Assembly: GCF_016903815.1 (NCBI RefSeq)
Contig: NZ_CP069973.1
Length of the DNA: 64,000 nucleotides
Strand: one strand, 5' to 3'
From: Escherichia coli
GTDB taxonomy: Bacteria > Pseudomonadota > Gammaproteobacteria > Enterobacterales > Enterobacteriaceae
Shown: one piece after another, positions 1-25,121 of the stretch
Layout of the letters: every line of letters starts with the position of its first letter
Position numbering within the stretch: the first letter of the stretch is position 1
Notes under the pieces: generated by a model
Databases searched by the model: none
Told to the model about the DNA's origin: nothing
What the model saw: only the letters and a program-made list of their open reading frames with translations
Translations under genes and position numbers: made by a program

Positions 1-1061
1 AATGGGCAGCGCTGCACGTCTCACGCTGGGGCAATGGACGCGGTCGCTTGCTGTTTACCTGGATTGTCCTGCTCGGTGCTGCCGTTGCAGCTCTGTTTGC
101 CAATGATGGCGCGGCGCTTATTTTGACACCGATTGTCATCGCCATGCTGCTGGCTTTAGGGTTCAGTAAAGGCACGACGCTTGCGTTCGTGATGGCGGCC
201 GGGTTCATTGCCGATACCGCCAGCCTGCCGCTTATTGTCTCCAACCTGGTGAATATCGTTTCCGCAGATTTCTTTGGCCTCGGCTTTCGCGAATATGCCT
301 CGGTGATGGTGCCGGTGGATATCGCCGCGATTGTTGCCACGCTGGTGATGTTGCATCTCTATTTCCGCAAAGATATTCCGCAGAACTACGACATGGCGCT
401 GCTGAAATCTCCCGCAGAAGCGATTAAAGATCCTGCTACGTTCAAAACTGGCTGGGTTGTTTTACTGCTTCTGCTGGTGGGATTTTTCGTTCTGGAACCG
501 CTCGGCATTCCGGTCAGCGCCATTGCGGCAGTGGGCGCGCTGATATTATTTGCCGTCGCTAAACGCGGTCATGCAATTAATACGGGTAAGGTGCTACGCG
601 GTGCGCCCTGGCAGATTGTCATCTTCTCGCTCGGCATGTATCTGGTGGTTTATGGCCTGCGCAATGCCGGACTAACGGAATATCTTTCTGGCGTACTCAA
701 CGTGCTGGCGGAAAACGGCCTGTGGGCCGCGACGCTCGGCACCGGATTCCTCACCGCCTTCCTCTCTTCTATTATGAACAATATGCCGACGGTACTGGTT
801 GGCGCGTTGTCCATTGATGGCAGCACGGCATCTGGCGTTATCAAAGAAGCGATGGTTTATGCCAACGTGATTGGCTGCGATTTGGGGCCGAAAATTACCC
901 CAATTGGTAGCCTGGCTACGCTACTCTGGCTGCACGTTCTTTCGCAGAAGAATATGACTATCAGCTGGGGATATTACTTCCGTACAGGGATTATCATGAC
1001 CCTGCCGGTGCTTTTTGTGACGCTGGCTGCGCTGGCGCTACGTCTCTCTTTCACTTTGTAA
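1..1061 (+). CDS. arsB: Arsenite efflux pump ArsB, C-terminal ~352 codons; 5' end lies upstream of the window
   Basis: Polytopic membrane protein translation in frame to stop at 1061; immediately followed by arsC as in the arsRBC operon. Confidence 0.9.
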
Positions 1062-1073
1062 TGAGATATTGAT

Positions 1074-1499
1074 ATGAGCAACATTACCATTTATCACAAC
1101 CCGGCCTGCGGTACGTCGCGTAATACGCTGGAGATGATCCGCAACAGCGGTACAGAACCGACCATCGTCTATTATCTGGAAACCCCACCGACGCGTGATG
1201 AACTGGTCAAACTCATTGCCGATATGGGGATTTCCGTACGCGCGCTGCTGCGTAAAAACGTCGAGCCGTATGAGGAACTGGGCCTTGCAGAAGATAAATT
1301 TACTGACGATCGGTTAATCGACTTTATGCTTCAGCACCCGATTCTGATTAATCGCCCGATTGTGGTGACGCCGCTGGGAACTCGCCTGTGTCGCCCTTCA
1401 GAAGTGGTGCTGGAAATTCTGCCAGATGCGCAACAAGGCGCGTTCACCAAGGAAGATGGCGAGAAAGTGGTTGATGAAGCGGGTAAACGCTTGAAATAA
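1074..1499 (+). CDS. arsC: Arsenate reductase ArsC (141 aa)
   Basis: 141-aa ORF starting MSNITIYHNPACGTSRNTLEMIR, the glutaredoxin-coupled ArsC family with catalytic Cys in the HNPACGTSR motif; 12 bp after arsB. Confidence 0.95.
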   Translation: MSNITIYHNPACGTSRNTLEMIRNSGTEPTIVYYLETPPTRDELVKLIADMGISVRALLRKNVEPYEELGLAEDKFTDDRLIDFMLQHPILINRPIVVTPLGTRLCRPSEVVLEILPDAQQGAFTKEDGEKVVDEAGKRLK

Positions 1500-1621: not shown

Positions 1622-1918
1622 TCAGGCAATTTTGCTATTTACGCAGCACTCCTCGCGTAAGAATTCAATTATCGCTTCCAGCATTGCGTATTGCGAAACA
1701 CACATCAGCGTTCGACTCTCACGGTTTTGTTTGACCAGCCCTACCGATACCAGTGCTGAAATATGGTGACTGAGTGTAGAGCCGGGTATCCCAAGCTGCT
1801 TTTGCAACTCACCGACCGGCAAACCTTGTTCCCCCGCTTTGACCAGGTGTTTGAATATGAACAAACGGGTCGGGTGACCTAGCTCTTTCAGCGCTTTAGC
1901 AACTTCTTCCAACTGCAT
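1622..1918 (-). CDS. ArsR/SmtB-family HTH transcriptional regulator (98 aa) with C-terminal cysteines
   Basis: LGHPTRLFIFKHL...STLSHHISALVSVGLV is the ArsR/SmtB winged-helix signature. No CVC motif in helix 3; cysteines are at LMCVSQ and the C-terminal EECC. Confidence 0.85.
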   Translation of the reverse strand: MQLEEVAKALKELGHPTRLFIFKHLVKAGEQGLPVGELQKQLGIPGSTLSHHISALVSVGLVKQNRESRTLMCVSQYAMLEAIIEFLREECCVNSKIA

Positions 1919-1943
1919 ATGACACCCCCTTTGTCTGGTTGAT

Positions 1944-2002
1944 ATTTCGATAATACCAGAAATATCTTGATCTGAATTTCATTTCGATTATTCTGGAAAT
2001 AT
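1944..2002. promoter_or_regulatory. Candidate operator: two copies of a ~22-bp motif in the divergent regulator/permease intergenic region
   Basis: atttcgataataccagaaatat (1944-1965) and atttcgattattctggaaatat (1981-2002), identical except the central CCAG/CTGG swap, between the two divergent start codons. Confidence 0.4.
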
Positions 2003-2013
2003 AGATTTATTCA

Positions 2014-3027
2014 ATGAGGTTACGTATGAGTAGTTGGCTTGCGATGCTGCAAGATGCCGCAGAGATGTTTGTGTTTCTCGCCGTTGAGCTTTCTTTGCTG
2101 TTTATAGTGATTAGTGCCGGTGTGAGCCTGATAAGACAAAAGGTGCCAGACCATAAAATCCAGCAGATGATGGGGGCCAGAAAAGGGAGAGGTTATCTCC
2201 TGGCTGCTCTGTTGGGAGCCGTTACCCCGTTCTGTAGTTGCTCGACAATACCCATGTTACGTGGATTGTTGTCAGCGAAAGCCGGGTTTGGTCCAACCCT
2301 TACTTTTTTATTTGTTTCACCGCTACTTAATCCCATTATCGTCGGACTAATGTGGGTGACCTTTGGCTGGAAAGTGACCTTGTTGTACGCGATTATCGCC
2401 GCCGGCGTCTCCGTACTTGCCAGTATTATCCTGGATTCTCTGGGATTTGAACGTCATATTATTGCCAGTAAAAGCTCATCAGCAAATTGTTGTGCTCCAG
2501 CCAAAACTTCGCCGGGGACGACATATACGCCAATAAAAGTGAGTTGCTGTAGTCCAGCGGCTAAAGCCATTGAGAAACCTGTAGTAAACTGTTGCAGTAC
2601 CAAAGCTGTGGTAAGTATTAATCCCATAAAACTAGCCACCAAAGATGCGTTGCAACAGTTTAAAGATGTACTGCCATATCTTTTGTTAGGGGTATTAATA
2701 GGCTCTTTTATTTATGGCTTTATTCCCTCAGAGTGGATTGCCGCTCATGCAGGGGCAGATAATCCCTTCGCCATCCCATTGAGCGCCGTTGTCGGTATTC
2801 CGCTATATATCCGGGCAGAGGCGGTTATCCCTCTGGCATCTGTTCTGATGACAAAAGGAATGGCTCTGGGAGCATTAATGGCATTAATCATCGGCAGTGC
2901 CGGCGCAAGCCTGACGGAAGTGATATTACTTAAATCAATGTTCAGAATACCGATGATAGTTGCATTCCTGACGGTTATATTAGGTATGGCTATCTTGATG
3001 GGCTATTTGACTCAAATGCTATTTTAA
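2014..3027 (+). CDS. Putative permease, DUF318/YraQ-ArsP-like, with TPFCSCS motif and a Cys-rich loop (337 aa)
   Basis: Multi-TM hydrophobic protein; AVTPFCSCSTIPMLRGLL matches the conserved ArsP-type motif as I recall it; central loop has three vicinal Cys pairs (NCCAP, SCCSP, NCCST). Confidence 0.8.
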   Translation: MRLRMSSWLAMLQDAAEMFVFLAVELSLLFIVISAGVSLIRQKVPDHKIQQMMGARKGRGYLLAALLGAVTPFCSCSTIPMLRGLLSAKAGFGPTLTFLFVSPLLNPIIVGLMWVTFGWKVTLLYAIIAAGVSVLASIILDSLGFERHIIASKSSSANCCAPAKTSPGTTYTPIKVSCCSPAAKAIEKPVVNCCSTKAVVSINPIKLATKDALQQFKDVLPYLLLGVLIGSFIYGFIPSEWIAAHAGADNPFAIPLSAVVGIPLYIRAEAVIPLASVLMTKGMALGALMALIIGSAGASLTEVILLKSMFRIPMIVAFLTVILGMAILMGYLTQMLF

Positions 3028-3607
3028 ATAGATGCCAGCAGTAAACTATAAGGAGCATTGTGAGTGCCTTATCCTTCTGAGTAGAAAATCATAGATAGGA
3101 TAATCTTTAAAAATCACAAATAACTTAACTAATGCTTTGAGAATGATGACGGATCCGTCAGTAAGTCATCAATCGACAATCACCACGCAATCATGCTTCT
3201 CTGACATTTTATCGGAGAAGCAATGTCTCTTTGTTTCAGTGCTATCCCCCCTTTTAAAGGGCAGATTTCAGTCGCCAATACAACACATTTTTAAATACAC
3301 TTTAACCTGGTTCATTATTACACATCTAAAACATCACAAAAATATCACTTCACACACTATCGGTGAACATCATAACTTTTTAAAATGAGCGCTTTTTGAT
3401 AGTTGTTAACGTTTTCCTTTACGATACTATCACTGCCCTTTTTTTATACACAAATATTACCGGGTGGAGATAAAAGGGAAATCAAAGGTAATTATATCAG
3501 GAAGAGATAACGCATTACATTTATTGTGTGTAGAAGAAAATCCATTCCTGTTCTAATTATCCAATTTAAACATCTTAGCATAAAACAAATGATGAATAAG
3601 GAATTTT

Positions 3608-4831
3608 ATGTCAATTGACTTTACCCCAGGTATAATAAATACATATCACGGCGATATTTATAACTGCACAACAAATACCGATAATGCTAAAACGCCAGAC
3701 ACACCGAAGTGGCCTTGCGATAATTTGGAAGAACAACAACCCATTAATTCCACATTCTCTGGAGAAGGATATACCTCTGATCAATATGATTTAGCGCAAC
3801 ACCAACTTCAACAAATTAATGCGTGCCACACGAACACTACATATACAAATGCAGAATACTCAAAAGTTGTGACTCAACTTGTAAGTCTTATTACTAACAT
3901 TGAAACGATAAGTTCGACACCACTTACGCAACAGACACAATCAATACTTAATCAGATTAATAACATTAGATACGAAAAAAACAAAAGTGCTGAATGTCGA
4001 ATCATTGTTGTCGCTAATCCTAAACCCGACAAGGCAATCATAACTAAAATTAGCGTAGAAGAGGGAATACCAGTAAGATTCAGTGTCCAAACCATGTTTT
4101 CAGATACTAATTTTATTGCTGAACAACGAGCTGACTTACCGACTAATATAAAAGATATTCAAAACCTGTATCAAAAAATGACGAAGTTATATATTGAGCA
4201 CAGTGAAAATAAAAACAGGATGAAAGTCTTTGCCGGAACCAACTTTATTGATTTCAATATGACAGGACAGAACCTGTCCGGGTTCGTTCTAACCTTGTCA
4301 AGGTTTTATTTCGAAGATCTACTTAATATAAATTTCACTGACGCAAATTTAGGTGACACTATTTTTTCACATAAAGAACACCCTGCCCCAAAATTATATA
4401 AAGACGAACAATATCTTGACAAACAAATCGAAGGTTTATTTTCAACATTATTAACCATTAATGACAACTTTTTACGAGCAAAAGCGGAAATTGCTTCGAC
4501 AATAATTAAATTCTTAGAGGCCAGGATAACCAATATTTCATACAATGACATATTAAAATATCAGCAAGAATTCAAAAAACAATGTTATAAGCAAGTTAAA
4601 GCCTTTACGACACTCTCCCGATACAATAAAATTCAAACATGGGCAGAAATGTCTGAATATCAATTCGAAGTATTTCAACGCGAGACGCTTAACCCAAAAA
4701 AAATGTCATGCGCACCTTATTTAAAGAGATCGCTACCTGATGAAAAAACTATAAATTATGGGGTGGAAATAGAAACACCAACTGGCAAAAGAATTCGCTT
4801 ATCAAATCATTACCAGAATATAATCCCATAA
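3608..4831 (+). CDS. Hypothetical AT-rich protein (407 aa) with a pentapeptide-repeat segment; possibly the intact counterpart of the K-12 yhiS pseudogene
   Basis: Long ORF in a markedly AT-rich stretch, no signal peptide. The segment [43 protein letters not shown] forms about nine consecutive pentapeptides with [DN][LFM] periodicity. Position between arsC and slp matches yhiS in K-12. Confidence 0.6.
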
Positions 4832-5075
4832 TATGAACATTAGCACTTTATAATCATTGAATAAAAATAGATTTTATGTACCTTTAAAAAAAGGCTATTT
4901 TATGGGGCGATGGATACTCATGTCACGCCCCAAAATTAACAGAATTAAACTAAACAGAAGGGATATAAACATCAGACAGGTTTACGTTACTATCAGGCAT
5001 ATCGCCTCAGAATCAGATGAAAACTATAAAGAAATATCTATTATGGTTTTAATATTTGTTGATAAGGATAGTAAC

Positions 5076-5642
5076 ATGAACATGACAAAAGGTGCACTCA
5101 TCCTCAGCCTTTCATTTTTGCTTGCCGCATGTAGTTCAATTCCGCAAAATATCAAAGGCAATAACCAACCTGATATTCAAAAAAGTTTTGTTGCTGTTCA
5201 TAACCAGCCGGGGTTATATGTTGGTCAACAAGCGCGCTTTGGTGGGAAGGTTATCAACGTTATCAATGGCAAAACGGATACGTTGTTAGAAATCGCTGTA
5301 TTACCGTTGGATAGCTATGCGAAGCCTGATATTGAAGCCAACTATCAGGGCCGACTGCTCGCCAGACAAAGCGGCTTCCTTGATCCAGTGAACTATCGTA
5401 ATCACTTTGTTACCATCCTCGGTACCATTCAGGGTGAACAACCTGGCTTTATCAATAAAGTCCCGTATAACTTCCTCGAAGTGAATATGCAGGGCATCCA
5501 GGTGTGGCATTTGAGAGAAGTGGTTAATACCACCTATAACCTGTGGGATTACGGCTATGGTGCATTCTGGCCGGAACCGGGCTGGGGTGCGCCTTACTAC
5601 ACCAACGCGGTGAGTCAGGTAACACCTGAGCTGGTCAAATAA
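5076..5642 (+). CDS. slp: Outer membrane lipoprotein Slp (188 aa)
   Basis: MNMTKGALILSLSFLLAACSS has a lipobox (LAAC); 188-aa length and synteny match Slp. The ORF-track start at 4857 is an upstream in-frame extension. Confidence 0.9.
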   Translation: MNMTKGALILSLSFLLAACSSIPQNIKGNNQPDIQKSFVAVHNQPGLYVGQQARFGGKVINVINGKTDTLLEIAVLPLDSYAKPDIEANYQGRLLARQSGFLDPVNYRNHFVTILGTIQGEQPGFINKVPYNFLEVNMQGIQVWHLREVVNTTYNLWDYGYGAFWPEPGWGAPYYTNAVSQVTPELVK

Positions 5643-5794
5643 CACCACCGAAAGATGCAGATGCTTTCTCAGCATCTGCATCATGCATTACATCAAATTA
5701 ATACACAGCCAGCTAACTATTATTATAAGCCCTGTCCTGTTAATTACCTTTGGCAAACTGATTATAAAGTTAATGTCCGCACCAGGAGTCGGTT

Positions 5795-6325
5795 ATGTTT
5801 CTTATAATTACCAGGGATACGATGTTCTTCACTGCGATGAAAAACATTCTGAGTAAAGGTAATGTCGTTCATATACAGAACGAAGAAGAGATCGACGTAA
5901 TGTTGCATCAGCATGCCTTCGTCATTATTGATACATTAATGAATAATGTATTTCATTCTAATTTGCTCACTCAGATTGAACGATTAAAACCTGTCCATGT
6001 GATTATTTTCTCTCCCTTTAATATTAAACGCTGCCTGGGGAAAGTACCGGTGACCTTTGTTCCGCGAACTATCACCATCATCGACTTTGTCGCACTCATC
6101 AATGGCAGTTACTGCTCTGTGCCTGAAGCGGATGTGTCCCTTTCGCGCAAGCAGCATCAGGTTCTGAGCTGCATTGCGAATCAAATGACAACGGAAGATA
6201 TTCTGGAGAAACTGAAAATATCGCTAAAAACGTTCTACTGCCATAAACACAATATCATGATGATCCTCAATCTTAAGCGGATCAATGAGTTGGTACGCCA
6301 TCAGCATATTGATTATCTGGTGTGA
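5795..6325 (+). CDS. dctR: LuxR-family regulator DctR/YhiF (176 aa)
   Basis: 176-aa ORF with C-terminal LuxR-type HTH, directly after slp as in the acid fitness island. Confidence 0.9.
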   Translation: MFLIITRDTMFFTAMKNILSKGNVVHIQNEEEIDVMLHQHAFVIIDTLMNNVFHSNLLTQIERLKPVHVIIFSPFNIKRCLGKVPVTFVPRTITIIDFVALINGSYCSVPEADVSLSRKQHQVLSCIANQMTTEDILEKLKISLKTFYCHKHNIMMILNLKRINELVRHQHIDYLV

Positions 6326-6385
6326 TCGATTGATTAATATAAAGAGGCCCAGCAATAAATAGCCAGACCTCCCTTTAATTATACG

Positions 6386-7414
6386 TTATGCAGTAACGCC
6401 TTCCGGTATCAGCGAAGCAATTTGCTTACGCCATTGCGCTTGCTCCTGTTCGCCTTCTGTACGTTGACCATAAAGTTGCGCTATCTGCGTACCATCATGG
6501 GCAAACAATTCCAGACTGGTCACATAACCGTCACTAGCAGGTTTACGGGTTACCCAGGTTTCAGCAATGCTCTCTTCTAATAGATGAAGAGTAAACGTCG
6601 GGTTAAAAATATTCAGCCAACCTTTCATTGGCACCACTTTTTCTACCACGCCAGTGAAAATCTGTACGCAGCCACGGTTGCCAACAAACACCATGATTTC
6701 ATTGCCATCCTGCTGTGCAGATTCAAGAATTTGCGCCAACGCACTGTTGGATACTTTGCAGGCCAAATCGTCTGCCACCAGATTGAACGCCTGTTGGCGC
6801 GTCAGGTTGTGGCGCTTGAGCAACGTAAAAAACTGATGAACGTCGGTCATCGCCCGCCACTCTTGCTCGACCACACTGGCATCGGCTCGCATTTGAACGA
6901 CTGGCGCATCAACGGCTTTTAACTCAAGCGGCGTATTCTCATCAGTGATAAACCGTGCCAGAAGCTCACTCCATGCCGCCATATCGGTATTGTCGGTGGC
7001 ATAAACTTTTAGTAATGCATCGCCCTGATGATCAAAGAACTGAATACTCTGGCGTTCGCCACGAGTCGTATTTTCTTTAATGTGAAAAACACTGGCCCAT
7101 TGATTGAGAAACAGACGCAAATCCAGCGCGCGTGGATTGAGGATCAATCCGGCATGTCCGTTCAAATGCTGGTTTGTGAACGCACCAACTTGCTCATGGA
7201 CTGCATATTCATTACGGCAAATACATTTGGTCTCGCCAACACTTTCGAGCGCCGCCAGAATTTCACGGATATCGCCGCGCATCCGCCACGCATCGTGCGT
7301 GACGCGTGCAAATGCCAGTTCTGCTTCGCTAATATTCATTAAACCTGCGATGTCACGCGCGTACTTTCCGGGATTTTGTTCTTTTAACTCAAGCCAGCGT
7401 GTGTAGTGGTTCAT
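6386..7414 (-). CDS. chuS: Haem-degrading/haem oxygenase protein ChuS (342 aa)
   Basis: 342-aa ORF recognised as the ChuS/HemS/ShuS family, immediately downstream of chuA on the same strand. Confidence 0.9.
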   Translation of the reverse strand: MNHYTRWLELKEQNPGKYARDIAGLMNISEAELAFARVTHDAWRMRGDIREILAALESVGETKCICRNEYAVHEQVGAFTNQHLNGHAGLILNPRALDLRLFLNQWASVFHIKENTTRGERQSIQFFDHQGDALLKVYATDNTDMAAWSELLARFITDENTPLELKAVDAPVVQMRADASVVEQEWRAMTDVHQFFTLLKRHNLTRQQAFNLVADDLACKVSNSALAQILESAQQDGNEIMVFVGNRGCVQIFTGVVEKVVPMKGWLNIFNPTFTLHLLEESIAETWVTRKPASDGYVTSLELFAHDGTQIAQLYGQRTEGEQEQAQWRKQIASLIPEGVTA

Positions 7415-7462
7415 TGTCTCTCTTCCTTCCAGATAAATGCCCCGAAATATCGGGGCAGATGA

Positions 7463-9445
7463 TTACCATTGATAACTCACGAAAATTTTTCCATTACGAC
7501 CATCCTGTGGGATGCCTTGTGGCGACCAGTACTCTTTGTCGAAAGCGTTACCCAACACCAAAGTAGTGGTCATACCTTTGAGCGCCTGTTGTCCTTGATA
7601 ACTGACGTAGAAATCATTCACGCCATAGCCTGGTTGTTTGCTGTAACTGCTGCTGATATGTGTTGAGCGATCGGCAAACGTACCAACCCACCCAACAGAG
7701 AAGCCACTGTGAGCGATCGGAATATTCAGGGTACTGGTAACGGTATCCGGGTTAATGCTGGAGATATATTCCCCAGTATCGGTGTCTTTGCCGCGGGTAC
7801 GGTTATAGGCCACATCAAGGCTAAACAGATCAGTGGTATATTTCGTCATTACATCCCAGCCCCAGATTTTGGCGTTCGGGACGTTATACGACATAGTTGT
7901 CGCCGCCGCGAAATCGACGGTCGTGGAGATGTAATCCTTCGCTTTGGTATCAAAGTAGCTGGCTTTAAATTCCAGGGTATCATTGGACAACATCAGGTCA
8001 TCAAAACGCAGCCCAAAACCGTACTCCTGAGTTTCGTTAGTTTCCGGACGTAAGTTCGGGTTTGGCACCCAATAGTTGGTATAGAAGCGACCAATCGAGA
8101 AGTGCTTAGAATCGTTATACATTTCGCCCATCGTCGGGGCGCGGAATGCCTGGGCATATGAGCCAAATAACATCAGCCAGTTAGTCGGATTGATAGTCAT
8201 CCCCGCACGAGATGACCATTTGTCGGCATCAACATCTTTGTAACCGTCACTGCTACCGCGATAACTGTCATAGCGGGTTCCGCCAAGCAGGGTAATCGGC
8301 AGATCGCGTAAGGTGATCTCATCCTGTAGCCAGCCGGAGCTAAAATCGATTTTTGCTTGCGGGAAGCCCGTCGTCGCGCCGCCCGGATGTTGTTCCTGAC
8401 GATAATACTCACCGCCATATGTCAGTAAGTGAGAAGCGAAACTGTCGGCAAAGAGAGTGGAACGGTTCTCCAGCCTGGCTCCTTTTGTTATCTGTTCACG
8501 ATACTCGCCGGAACTCCCCGTGTTTTGCGCATTAATACGGACTTCCGACCAGTAAATTTTTGCATCTGCATTTAACCAGTCGTTGCCCTGCGGGGCGAGT
8601 TTATAAGAAAGCTGCGCATCGCGTTGAATTGTTGAACGATCAACCATCGGGTTGCTGCTATCAGAAGCCTCAACAGTCTGCGGATTTTTTGGTTCACGCG
8701 CGTCGTTGTTGTAGTAACGCACTAAACCGCTCAGAGACTGGGCTGAATCAATTTGCCAGGTCCCTTTCGCCAGCATGTTATTAATGGACTCGTCATTCGG
8801 CGCGGTTTCACCATTGCTCTGGCGTAAATCACCCCGACCGCGACTGGACCAGGCCACAATACCATCCAGATTTTCAGTTCGCCCAAACGCGCTCGCGCCT
8901 AATCCCAGGCTATGGTCCCCCGTGCCGCCAGTACCAAAGACACGAAAACCACTGCTTTGTCCTTCCTGCAATAAATCTTTTGCATCGACCGTATCGTAGG
9001 AGATCACTCCACCCAGCGCACCACTGCCATACAGTAATGCTGAAGGTCCGCGAACAATCTCAACACGCTTGATCAGCGCCGGATCGAGAAAAGTGCCATT
9101 CAGGTGTCCGGTATCCGTTCCCTGGCGAACACCATCGACAAGAACCAGCACGCCGCGATGATCATAGCCACGCATATTTACATCCTGACCGTTGGTTCGT
9201 CCGGTACCATCAAGAGTAATTCCAGGAACATGACGCAGCAAATCAGTGGCTGAAGTAGCCGTTTGATTTTCAGGAGCGGAAGTGTCGATGACGCTGACCA
9301 TCATAGGCGCTTCGAAGGAACTACGGGCATTCCCCGTTGCCGTAACGGTCATGGTTTCAGTAGCAAAAGCAAACGTTGGCAAGGTGGCAGAAACAGCCAA
9401 AGCCAACAAACTCAAACGCAACGAGGTAAATTGCGGACGTGACAT
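7463..9445 (-). CDS. chuA: TonB-dependent outer membrane haem/haemoglobin receptor ChuA (660 aa)
   Basis: Signal peptide, TonB-box-like N-terminus (ETMTVTA), plug and beta-barrel, C-terminal aromatic residue (ends ...FVSYQW). Confidence 0.95.
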   Translation of the reverse strand: MSRPQFTSLRLSLLALAVSATLPTFAFATETMTVTATGNARSSFEAPMMVSVIDTSAPENQTATSATDLLRHVPGITLDGTGRTNGQDVNMRGYDHRGVLVLVDGVRQGTDTGHLNGTFLDPALIKRVEIVRGPSALLYGSGALGGVISYDTVDAKDLLQEGQSSGFRVFGTGGTGDHSLGLGASAFGRTENLDGIVAWSSRGRGDLRQSNGETAPNDESINNMLAKGTWQIDSAQSLSGLVRYYNNDAREPKNPQTVEASDSSNPMVDRSTIQRDAQLSYKLAPQGNDWLNADAKIYWSEVRINAQNTGSSGEYREQITKGARLENRSTLFADSFASHLLTYGGEYYRQEQHPGGATTGFPQAKIDFSSGWLQDEITLRDLPITLLGGTRYDSYRGSSDGYKDVDADKWSSRAGMTINPTNWLMLFGSYAQAFRAPTMGEMYNDSKHFSIGRFYTNYWVPNPNLRPETNETQEYGFGLRFDDLMLSNDTLEFKASYFDTKAKDYISTTVDFAAATTMSYNVPNAKIWGWDVMTKYTTDLFSLDVAYNRTRGKDTDTGEYISSINPDTVTSTLNIPIAHSGFSVGWVGTFADRSTHISSSYSKQPGYGVNDFYVSYQGQQALKGMTTTLVLGNAFDKEYWSPQGIPQDGRNGKIFVSYQW

Positions 9446-9734
9446 AGCGATTCTCCATGAGGAAAATAAAAAATGCTGGCTGCCTGGGTTAATACCGGGG
9501 TGGCTGGCGAAAAATAAATTTATTTAAAATTCAGAGCGATAATATTCGCCGGGTGAGTTTACAGGCGTTTATATCCCATGAAATTGCCTGGTATCTCGGC
9601 AAATACGCAAAAGCACGCCCTCTTTGTCAGGCAAAACGATATGCCCCATCAGGAGTGAAGAGCGCTGTGCGTTATCCCTTGCAAATGCTATGGTTTTGTT
9701 ATCCATATGGTCGTGTTTTGTTAAGCGCGAACGT

Positions 9735-19028: not shown

Positions 19029-19366
19029 TCAGGACATAAGCAACTGAAATTGATGGCTGGCATGACGAGGGATGCAGATGCTGATTTCATTACCCCCGGT
19101 GATTACTAAAGGAGAGGCGAAAACGACTTTATTCCCCTGGTATATGTATCCACCAGTAGAACCCTTCGTTGCCCGAATGCTGGCAGGAACTGTTGGCAGA
19201 ACGGCAACATTTTTTTTGTCGTTGACCTCACCATGTCGATCACTATGCCTGTATCCCACCTTACTGGCTGACAACCCCACTATGCCGCTGGTCTGTAAAT
19301 CCCTCATATCTCTCCTCGCGCGCAATTTAAAGAACCGTTATTTCTCAAGAATTTTCAGGGACTAAA

Positions 19367-24753: not shown

Positions 24754-24999
24754 GACTATCCCTTATATTTCATTACTGCGATTATTTCAATTTCAGTATA
24801 CTAATGAAATGATGCCAGACTGTTTCTTAGCGCAAAAACTGCCAGATTTGGTAGGACCAAAATTTATCCACAAAGTAGTTTTGCATAACAGTTAATTGAT
24901 AATAAGTAAATGCAGCACGAATATATTTTCGCACAGCGTATAGCTTATGTTTATAAAAAAATGGCTGATCTTATTTCCAGTAAAAGTTATATTTAACTT

Positions 25000-25104
25000 A
25001 CTGAGAGCACAAAGTTTCCCGTGCCAACAGGGAGTGTTATAACGGTTTATTAGTCTGGAGACGGCAGACTATCCTCTTCCCGGTCCCCTATGCCGGGTTT
25101 TTTT
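25000..25104 (+). ncRNA. gadY: Small RNA GadY, antisense to the gadX 3' end
   Basis: 105-nt stretch beginning actgagagcacaaagtttccc and ending in the hairpin cccgg...ccggg plus T-run, matching the GadY sequence as I recall it; lies on the opposite strand just 3' of gadX. Confidence 0.7.
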
Positions 25105-25121
25105 TATGTCTGAGTAAAACT

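Follow-up and report, generated by a model that had tools for sequence, protein, structure and literature searches.

The window analysed here, a 64 kb stretch of Escherichia coli DNA, contains two divergently transcribed genes, one encoding a small regulator of the ArsR/SmtB family and the other an ArsP-family permease, which together stand beside a canonical arsRBC operon (Table 1). The CVC-type arsR belonging to that operon lies upstream, just beyond the edge of the window, according to the RefSeq annotation of an identical strain. The GC content of the repressor-permease module is about 45% and that of arsBC about 52%. Between the convergent arsC and repressor genes is a short REP-like repeat (1546-1583), which has 100% matches at many unrelated places in E. 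coli chromosomes. The stretch from 3000 to 5200 has a GC content of about 33% and includes a 407-aa ORF (3608-4831) that is annotated as a hypothetical protein and matches no NCBIfam family; its counterpart carries a frameshift in a strain without the arsR2-arsP module. Elsewhere in the window, matches at the Rfam gathering score were found for the shuA/chuA 5'UTR thermoregulator (9443-9474, minus strand), the ES205 sRNA (19146-19217, plus strand), GadY (24997-25110, plus strand) and three tandem rdlD antitoxin RNAs (59844-60876, plus strand).

Table 1. Features of the repressor-permease locus and the adjoining ars genes, with positions in the 64 kb window.
Feature	Position	Strand	Evidence and remarks
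arsB, 3' part	48-1061	+	canonical arsRBC operon, convergent with the repressor gene; RefSeq
arsC	1074-1499	+	NCBIfam arsC, 305 bits; RefSeq of an identical strain
SpArsR-type ArsR/SmtB repressor gene	1622-1918	-	ORF, Pfam, NCBIfam, SpArsR alignment, AF2 and Foldseek, RefSeq CDS
Codon of C92	1643-1645	-	second cysteine of the CC pair
Codon of C91	1646-1648	-	directly past helix 5 (77-90) in the model
Codon of C73 (LMCVSQ)	1700-1702	-	strand b2 in the model
Candidate sigma-70 promoter, permease	1939-1968	+	TTGATA, 18 nt spacer, TATCTT; O1 fills the spacer; consensus scan, 9/12, weak
Predicted operator O1	1944-1963	.	nearer arsR; imperfect palindrome ATTTCGATAATACCAGAAAT; pattern scan, conservation
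Predicted operator O2	1981-2000	.	nearer the permease; ATTTCGATTATTCTGGAAAT; starts 37 bp after O1; pattern scan, conservation
Candidate sigma-70 promoter, repressor	1987-2014	-	TTGAAT, 16 nt spacer, AATAAT; -10 inside O2; consensus scan, 9/12, weak
ArsP_1 (PF03773) permease gene, 333 aa	2026-3027	+	divergent from the repressor gene; Pfam, identity to Shewanella arsP, RefSeq start

The regulator gene is an intact ORF whose 98 codons specify a protein of 98 aa, MQLEEVAKALKELGHPTRLFIFKHLVKAGEQGLPVGELQKQLGIPGSTLSHHISALVSVGLVKQNRESRTLMCVSQYAMLEAIIEFLREECCVNSKIA. In E. coli strain 7/2, which is 100% identical, this CDS is listed by RefSeq as an ArsR/SmtB family transcription factor (WP_001175589.1); on related plasmids the name arsR2 is used for its counterpart. 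The protein matches the Pfam families HTH_20 (2.4e-14) and HTH_5 (1.3e-6), and its score with the NCBIfam model HTH_metalloreg, which describes ArsR/SmtB metalloregulators, passes the cutoff (61.9 bits; cutoff 55). The AlphaFold (AF2) model has a mean pLDDT of 92.5 and a secondary structure order of H-H-H-H-E-E-H, made up of a1 (residues 3-13), a2 (16-31), a3 (35-42), aR (46-58), b1 (62-67), b2 (70-75) and a5 (77-90). Every Foldseek match of this model is an ArsR/SmtB protein. The product is, as predicted from its sequence and its model, an ArsR/SmtB winged-helix repressor with the a1-a2-a3-aR-b1-b2-a5 fold.

The repressor contains three cysteines, C73, C91 and C92, and none before residue 73. 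The initial annotation had located cysteines in the motifs LMCVSQ and EECC and had described helix 3 as devoid of them, and both statements hold: these are all the cysteines present, and residues 29-42, GEQGLPVGELQKQL, which align with the ELCVCDLC segment of the canonical E. coli ArsR, include none. Its description of EECC as terminal is slightly loose, because six residues, VNSKIA, none of them cysteine, follow the CC pair before the stop codon. The absence of the CVC site of R773-type ArsR, which the same annotation had also proposed, is borne out by the helix-3 alignment. R773 ArsR and the chromosomal E. coli ArsR, the latter the product of a gene a few kb distant in this strain, are of type 1 and share the family and fold of the window protein; the chromosomal protein is, however, only 20% identical to it and has the sensing site ELCVCDLC where the window protein has GLPVGELQ. 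The type 1 signature (Cys32-Val-Cys34 plus Cys37, in helix 3) accordingly aligns with the segment LPVGELQK, which is free of cysteine. Assignment to type 3, represented by CgArsR with Cys15/Cys16 and Cys55, was rejected as well, the window protein having no cysteine before residue 73.

Conservation of the three cysteines was followed at two depths, in an alignment of the window protein with 120 close homologues (64-100% identity, 121 aligned sequences) and in a set of 137 diverse representatives whose mutual identities are all below 50%. Among the close homologues C73 is retained in all 121 sequences, C91 in 118 and C92 in 117. Among the diverse representatives a cysteine occupies the C73 position in 119 of 137, the CC pair is present in 122 and both occur together in 108. 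Because the pattern is conserved in close homologues and diverse representatives alike, it cannot be attributed to chance, and the attention that had been drawn to C73 at the outset was well placed. A distal cysteine beyond the CC pair is found in 37 of the 108 representatives with C73 and the pair and in 7 of the 14 that have the pair without C73; this is a weak trend only, and a test of mutual exclusivity between C73 and the distal cysteine across the 137 representatives gave no clear sign of a ligand swap.

The closest solved structure is that of AfArsR from Acidithiobacillus ferrooxidans (PDB 6J05), a type 2 As(III) sensor whose binding site is formed by Cys95, Cys96 and Cys102 (PMC11868830). 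It is the best PDB match by sequence (E 4.7e-10) and the top Foldseek match of the model (TM 0.89). The structure prediction and the alignment with ArsR proteins that use C-terminal cysteines, both of which had been proposed as checks, place C91 and C92 on the vicinal Cys95 and Cys96 at the C-terminal end of helix 5. The suggested resemblance to such proteins is therefore upheld as regards sequence, fold and the CC pair; it fails at the third ligand, because the chain of the window protein ends six residues after the pair and has no equivalent of Cys102, which in AfArsR lies about 6 residues past it. The two proteins differ further in that they are only 33% identical and that AfArsR, which responds to As(III), has a tyrosine at the position of C73, as do AfArsR-type proteins generally in the alignment.

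The PDB sequence matches that rank next after AfArsR, BigR and YgaV (about 2e-7), raise a different explanation, namely that the protein is a thiol redox or persulfide sensor like BigR, SqrR and YgaV in which C73 and the C91/C92 pair form a disulfide or polysulfide bridge. A vicinal pair together with a conserved third cysteine could support a redox switch, the NCBIfam BigR model gives 38.5 bits, and homologues in Vibrio are accompanied by a SigZ sigma factor whose tail is Cys-rich. Yet the BigR score falls far below its cutoff of 155, and the helix-2 cysteine that partners the C-terminal cysteine in BigR and SqrR is absent from the window protein, whose helix 2 (FIFKHLVKAG) contains no cysteine; membership of the BigR/SqrR/YgaV type was rejected on the placement of the cysteines. 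Sulfide-oxidation genes are also missing from the recurrent neighbours, the genomic context being one of arsenic genes, and a redox or persulfide sensor is thus extremely improbable.

The highest identity among the known ArsR types compared is to SpArsR (Sput200_1227) of Shewanella putrefaciens 200, a methylarsenite-selective ArsR attributed to Chen, Nadar & Rosen 2017 in the passages of PMC11868830 and PMC13236881 that cite it. The SpArsR sequence was rebuilt from a gBlock used for the biosensor and printed in the PMC12124457 supplement, two bases being restored by hand, and the rebuilt 105-aa protein is present verbatim in Shewanella genomes. It aligns with the repressor without gaps, 53 of 92 residues being identical (58%); NdArsR of Noviherbaspirillum denitrificans HC18 follows at 42%, ahead of AfArsR and the chromosomal ArsR. 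With a constant offset of 10, C83, C101 and C102 of SpArsR correspond to C73, C91 and C92, so that both proteins have the CC pair and neither has a distal third cysteine. The window protein is shorter than SpArsR because it lacks a 10-residue N-terminal extension. An ArsP-family permease gene is divergent from the repressor gene in both organisms; the surroundings differ in that the Shewanella arsR is followed by arsC, arsR2, arsP2, trx, gapdh and arsJ, whereas the E. coli module stands alone beside arsRBC. Judged by these sequence comparisons, the repressor is the E. coli orthologue of SpArsR, and this E. coli protein was previously uncharacterised; a literature search found no study of this E. 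coli locus.

The properties reported for SpArsR bear directly on the possible inducer. In a biosensor built on it, 1 uM MMAs(III) gave 73% of the derepressed signal and 50 uM As(III) gave 9% (PMC12124457). Together with that work, the passages on SpArsR in PMC11868830 and PMC13236881 describe a methylarsenite-selective protein that reportedly uses the CC pair only and is nearly blind to As(III); the same passages credit it with just two conserved cysteines and "no third cysteine", and attribute the weak As(III) response to this missing third ligand. NdArsR, which like the window protein has a beta-wing cysteine 18 residues before its CC pair, also prefers MMAs(III), and it answers DMAs(III) and in part As(III), of which 12.5 uM brought the signal to 47% of the derepressed level (PMC12124457). 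It differs in its target, in that it controls arsM in an MAs(III)-inducible arsRM operon and no permease.

The 107-bp intergenic region between the repressor and permease genes holds two 20-bp palindromes of the form ATTTC-N10-GAAAT (O1 and O2), and the pattern has no further match in the whole 64 kb, in which 0.17 matches would be expected. Of 79 related loci taken from different species, 70 carry this motif ahead of the regulator gene, with one copy at a fixed 41-45 nt from the arsR start and usually a second or third copy further upstream; the Shewanella region has three such sites and that of E. coli two. At this fixed distance from the start codon, E. coli and Shewanella share an identical 22-bp core, TTCGATAATACCAGAAATATCT, which is also invariant in the plasmid copy of the module and in Aeromonas, while the flanking sequences have diverged. 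In Shewanella this core falls inside the 222-bp arsP promoter that served as the SpArsR-controlled reporter promoter in PMC12124457. The conservation of the motif points to O1 and O2 as the probable sites of repressor binding.

The permease is a full-length member of the Pfam family ArsP_1 (2.8e-52, residues 13-334). A mechanical ORF call begins at 2014, but RefSeq and a GAGG ribosome-binding site favour a start at 2026. Its sequence includes the motif TPFCSCS, and its central loop contains three CC pairs; the motif is kept in 52 of 52 permease orthologues, and the number of CC pairs in the loop varies from 0 to 6. Over its full length it is 53% identical to the Shewanella arsP product encoded divergently from SpArsR, which has both the motif and a CC-rich loop, compared with a mere 30% for the second ArsP of the same Shewanella locus. 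The initial annotation had treated this permease as the likely regulated target, a proposal that the shared operator, the corresponding SpArsR/arsP arrangement and the similarity of the two permeases all support. The cysteine pair of TPFCSCS is presumably the pair that is essential in the ArsP of Campylobacter jejuni (CjArsP). That transporter exports MAs(III) and roxarsone(III) and does not export As(III) (PMC6205960); the window permease is likened to it by family membership in ArsP_1 and by motif. A literature search on Cys65/Cys67 of ArsP returned nothing relevant, and arsP genes have been reported to form two distinct clusters with possibly different functions. By analogy with these relatives, the substrate of the window permease would be a trivalent organoarsenical.

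The permease also gives rise to a second alternative, that the repressor is a sensor of a soft metal (Cu, Zn or Cd) controlling a PF03773 metal exporter whose Cys-rich loop binds the metal. The loop does contain CC repeats, and the best NCBIfam models for the permease are those of the SO_0444 Cu/Zn efflux protein (NF033936, 109 bits) and SaoE; many Vibrio loci, moreover, lack ars genes and have small His-rich ORFs 1.6-2.7 kb away. These model scores, however, are far below the respective cutoffs of 300 and 325, and the Shewanella arsP product gives the same sub-threshold matches; membership of the permease in the SO_0444 Cu/Zn exporter family was rejected because 109 bits is well short of 300. 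The alignment does not reveal the His, Asp and Glu ligands in alpha5 that are typical of Zn sensors, the closest neighbours in the clade nearest the window protein are arsH, arsD, arsA, arsC, arsB and arsJ, and the measured inducer of the orthologue SpArsR is methylarsenite (PMC12124457). A soft-metal sensor is accordingly very unlikely.

The module is widespread in E. coli and beyond. Of 5426 complete E. coli genomes, 2225 (about 41%) carry it at full length; in E. coli without it, arsC is followed directly by a yhiS-like gene and slp. About 800 plasmids of E. coli, Salmonella and Klebsiella, most of them conjugative, have a version with about 84% identity. The ArsR2 of IncI, IncN and IncC plasmids such as R64 and pUO-STmRV1 is 94% identical to the window protein and has the same three cysteines, divergent permease and operators; it differs in its greater length (107 aa, with a longer tail) and in being co-transcribed with arsH and a truncated sigZ, whereas the chromosomal copy is without arsH. 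The plasmid permease is likewise larger, with a longer Cys-rich loop, measuring 377 aa in RefSeq (7395-8528 of the pUO-STmRV1 locus, L085), as against 333 aa in the window, or 383 aa when the mechanical ORF with its TTG start is taken (7377-8528). The plasmid layout is thus arsP divergent from arsR-arsH, the product of the last gene being an organoarsenical oxidase identified by an NCBIfam equivalog match of 404 bits; an arsR-arsH arrangement is found in Serratia as well. A Salmonella strain with pUO-STmRV1 showed a 16-fold higher MIC of phenylarsine oxide and unchanged MICs of As(III) and As(V), in a comparison that was not isogenic (PMC8169936).

In Aeromonas (locus L010) two arsR genes are arranged in tandem (6001-6297 and 6370-6753), one SpArsR-like, with the CC pair only, and the other AfArsR-like, with the pattern CC-x6-C in which the last cysteine lies seven residues past the second of the pair. 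These are followed by arsD-arsA-acr3-arsC and are divergent from an ArsP-type permease gene. A separate ArsR of As(III) type accompanies this kind of regulator in each of the ars loci examined (Shewanella, E. coli, Serratia and Aeromonas), and in E. coli and Shewanella that companion is of the CVC type. Such pairing agrees with a split of tasks in which one sensor serves inorganic arsenicals and the other organic ones.

The association with arsenic genes is uneven across the wider family. Among 80 species loci, the permease gene is present in 54, and other dedicated ars genes occur within 6 kb in 14, mostly those of the closest relatives of the window protein. About 50 loci of Vibrionaceae have no other ars gene within 6 kb of the module, and several Photobacterium loci have the regulator without any permease. 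Because the Vibrionaceae modules lack other ars genes and are associated with SigZ, the wider family may not be devoted to arsenic. The SigZ in question, recognised by an NCBIfam equivalog match of 250 bits (for example 6251-6841 of locus L074), is of the ECF type and has a C-terminal tail rich in cysteine, and in 25 mostly Vibrio loci of the 80 (L001-L080) its gene is directly downstream of the arsR homologue and slightly overlaps it. On pUO-STmRV1 a truncated sigZ (5756-6166) follows arsH and is cut by an ORF for a Tn3-family transposase. The arrangement suggests an ancestral module of arsP divergent from arsR-(arsH)-sigZ. A gene for a eukaryote-type glutathione synthase (PF03917/PF03199) adjoins arsP in Shewanella-like loci (3176-4603 in L082-L084), and on a K. 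pneumoniae plasmid one of the same type is separated from arsH by 3.4 kb (3310-4746 in L087); this neighbour may point to a common origin of the module or to a functional link to the supply of thiols.

The initial annotation had gone further and had proposed that the three cysteines together form an As(III) site whose geometry differs from that of R773-type ArsR, and this explanation deserves separate consideration. In its strongest form C73, C91 and C92 would jointly supply three thiolates to bind inorganic As(III) or Sb(III), perhaps from different subunits, and the protein would be an arsenite sensor whose site has a novel geometry. Consistent with such a site, C73 is as highly conserved as the CC pair, and AfArsR-type proteins, in which the position is tyrosine, have a distal cysteine instead. 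From the alignment to CzrA, the triad would fall approximately where CzrA/SmtB have their inter-subunit alpha5 metal site; the Aeromonas gene opens a cluster of the order arsR-arsR-arsD-arsA-acr3-arsC; and NdArsR, which has the same triad, responds in part to As(III). The behaviour of SpArsR speaks against the proposal, however, since a protein with the identical triad is only marginally derepressed by As(III), and an As(III) site built from these three cysteines is therefore unsupported. The attribution of that weak response to a missing ligand, the presence of a separate As(III)-type ArsR in ars loci with this regulator and the lack of any gain in As(III) resistance in the plasmid-carrying strain argue in the same direction. 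A dedicated three-thiolate arsenite sensor is accordingly judged improbable.

The conservation of C73 nevertheless calls for an explanation. C73, the equivalent of SpArsR C83, is nearly invariant in a very large clade and likely has some role, to judge from this conservation; a pure two-cysteine model does not account for that near-invariance. It is conceivable, though doubtful, that C73 is a working part of the sensor, either in an inter-subunit three-thiolate site with C91' and C92', placed where the classical alpha5 metal site lies, or in a thiol-disulfide switch with them. Were this so, the published two-cysteine picture of the whole clade, SpArsR included, would be incomplete, and the responses of the E. 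coli protein could extend beyond methylarsenite, for instance to redox state, to aromatic arsenicals or, given higher doses, to As(III) or Sb(III). The invariant C73 thus poses a concrete and cheap question for ArsR biochemists.

The reading preferred here, to which we assign a probability of roughly two in three, is that the locus comprises an SpArsR-type repressor and an ArsP-family permease that sense and export trivalent organoarsenicals, separately from the adjacent canonical arsRBC operon. This reading is drawn from the methylarsenite data on SpArsR and from the phenylarsine oxide resistance of the plasmid-bearing strain. In the absence of inducer, the homodimeric repressor would bind the two 20-bp operators of the intergenic region; because these overlap the two proposed divergent promoters, it would shut off both its own gene and that of the permease. 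A trivalent organoarsenical of the methylarsenite or phenylarsenite type, which needs two thiolates, would bind the vicinal C91 and C92 at the end of helix 5, at the dimer interface, whereupon the repressor would leave the DNA and the permease would be made and would export the organoarsenical. Inorganic arsenite, which needs three thiolates, would be a poor inducer and would be sensed instead by the CVC-type ArsR of arsRBC. A preference of the E. coli repressor for MAs(III) over As(III) is thus to be expected by analogy with SpArsR. An identity of 58% does not guarantee the same selectivity, and because NdArsR, with the same cysteine pattern, answers As(III) in part, selectivity may be graded.

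Anaerobic microbes of gut and soil produce methylarsenite, for which a role as a natural antibiotic has been proposed, and feed additives of the roxarsone type yield related compounds. Given these sources, the module could be a fitness or co-selection factor in animal guts. If the preferred reading is correct, approximately four in ten sequenced E. coli would carry a dedicated sensor and pump for trivalent organoarsenicals that is distinct from arsRBC, and the same sensor and pump would occur on conjugative plasmids from E. coli, Salmonella and Klebsiella that number in the hundreds. The module would, in that case, also provide a native E. coli part for methylarsenite biosensors.
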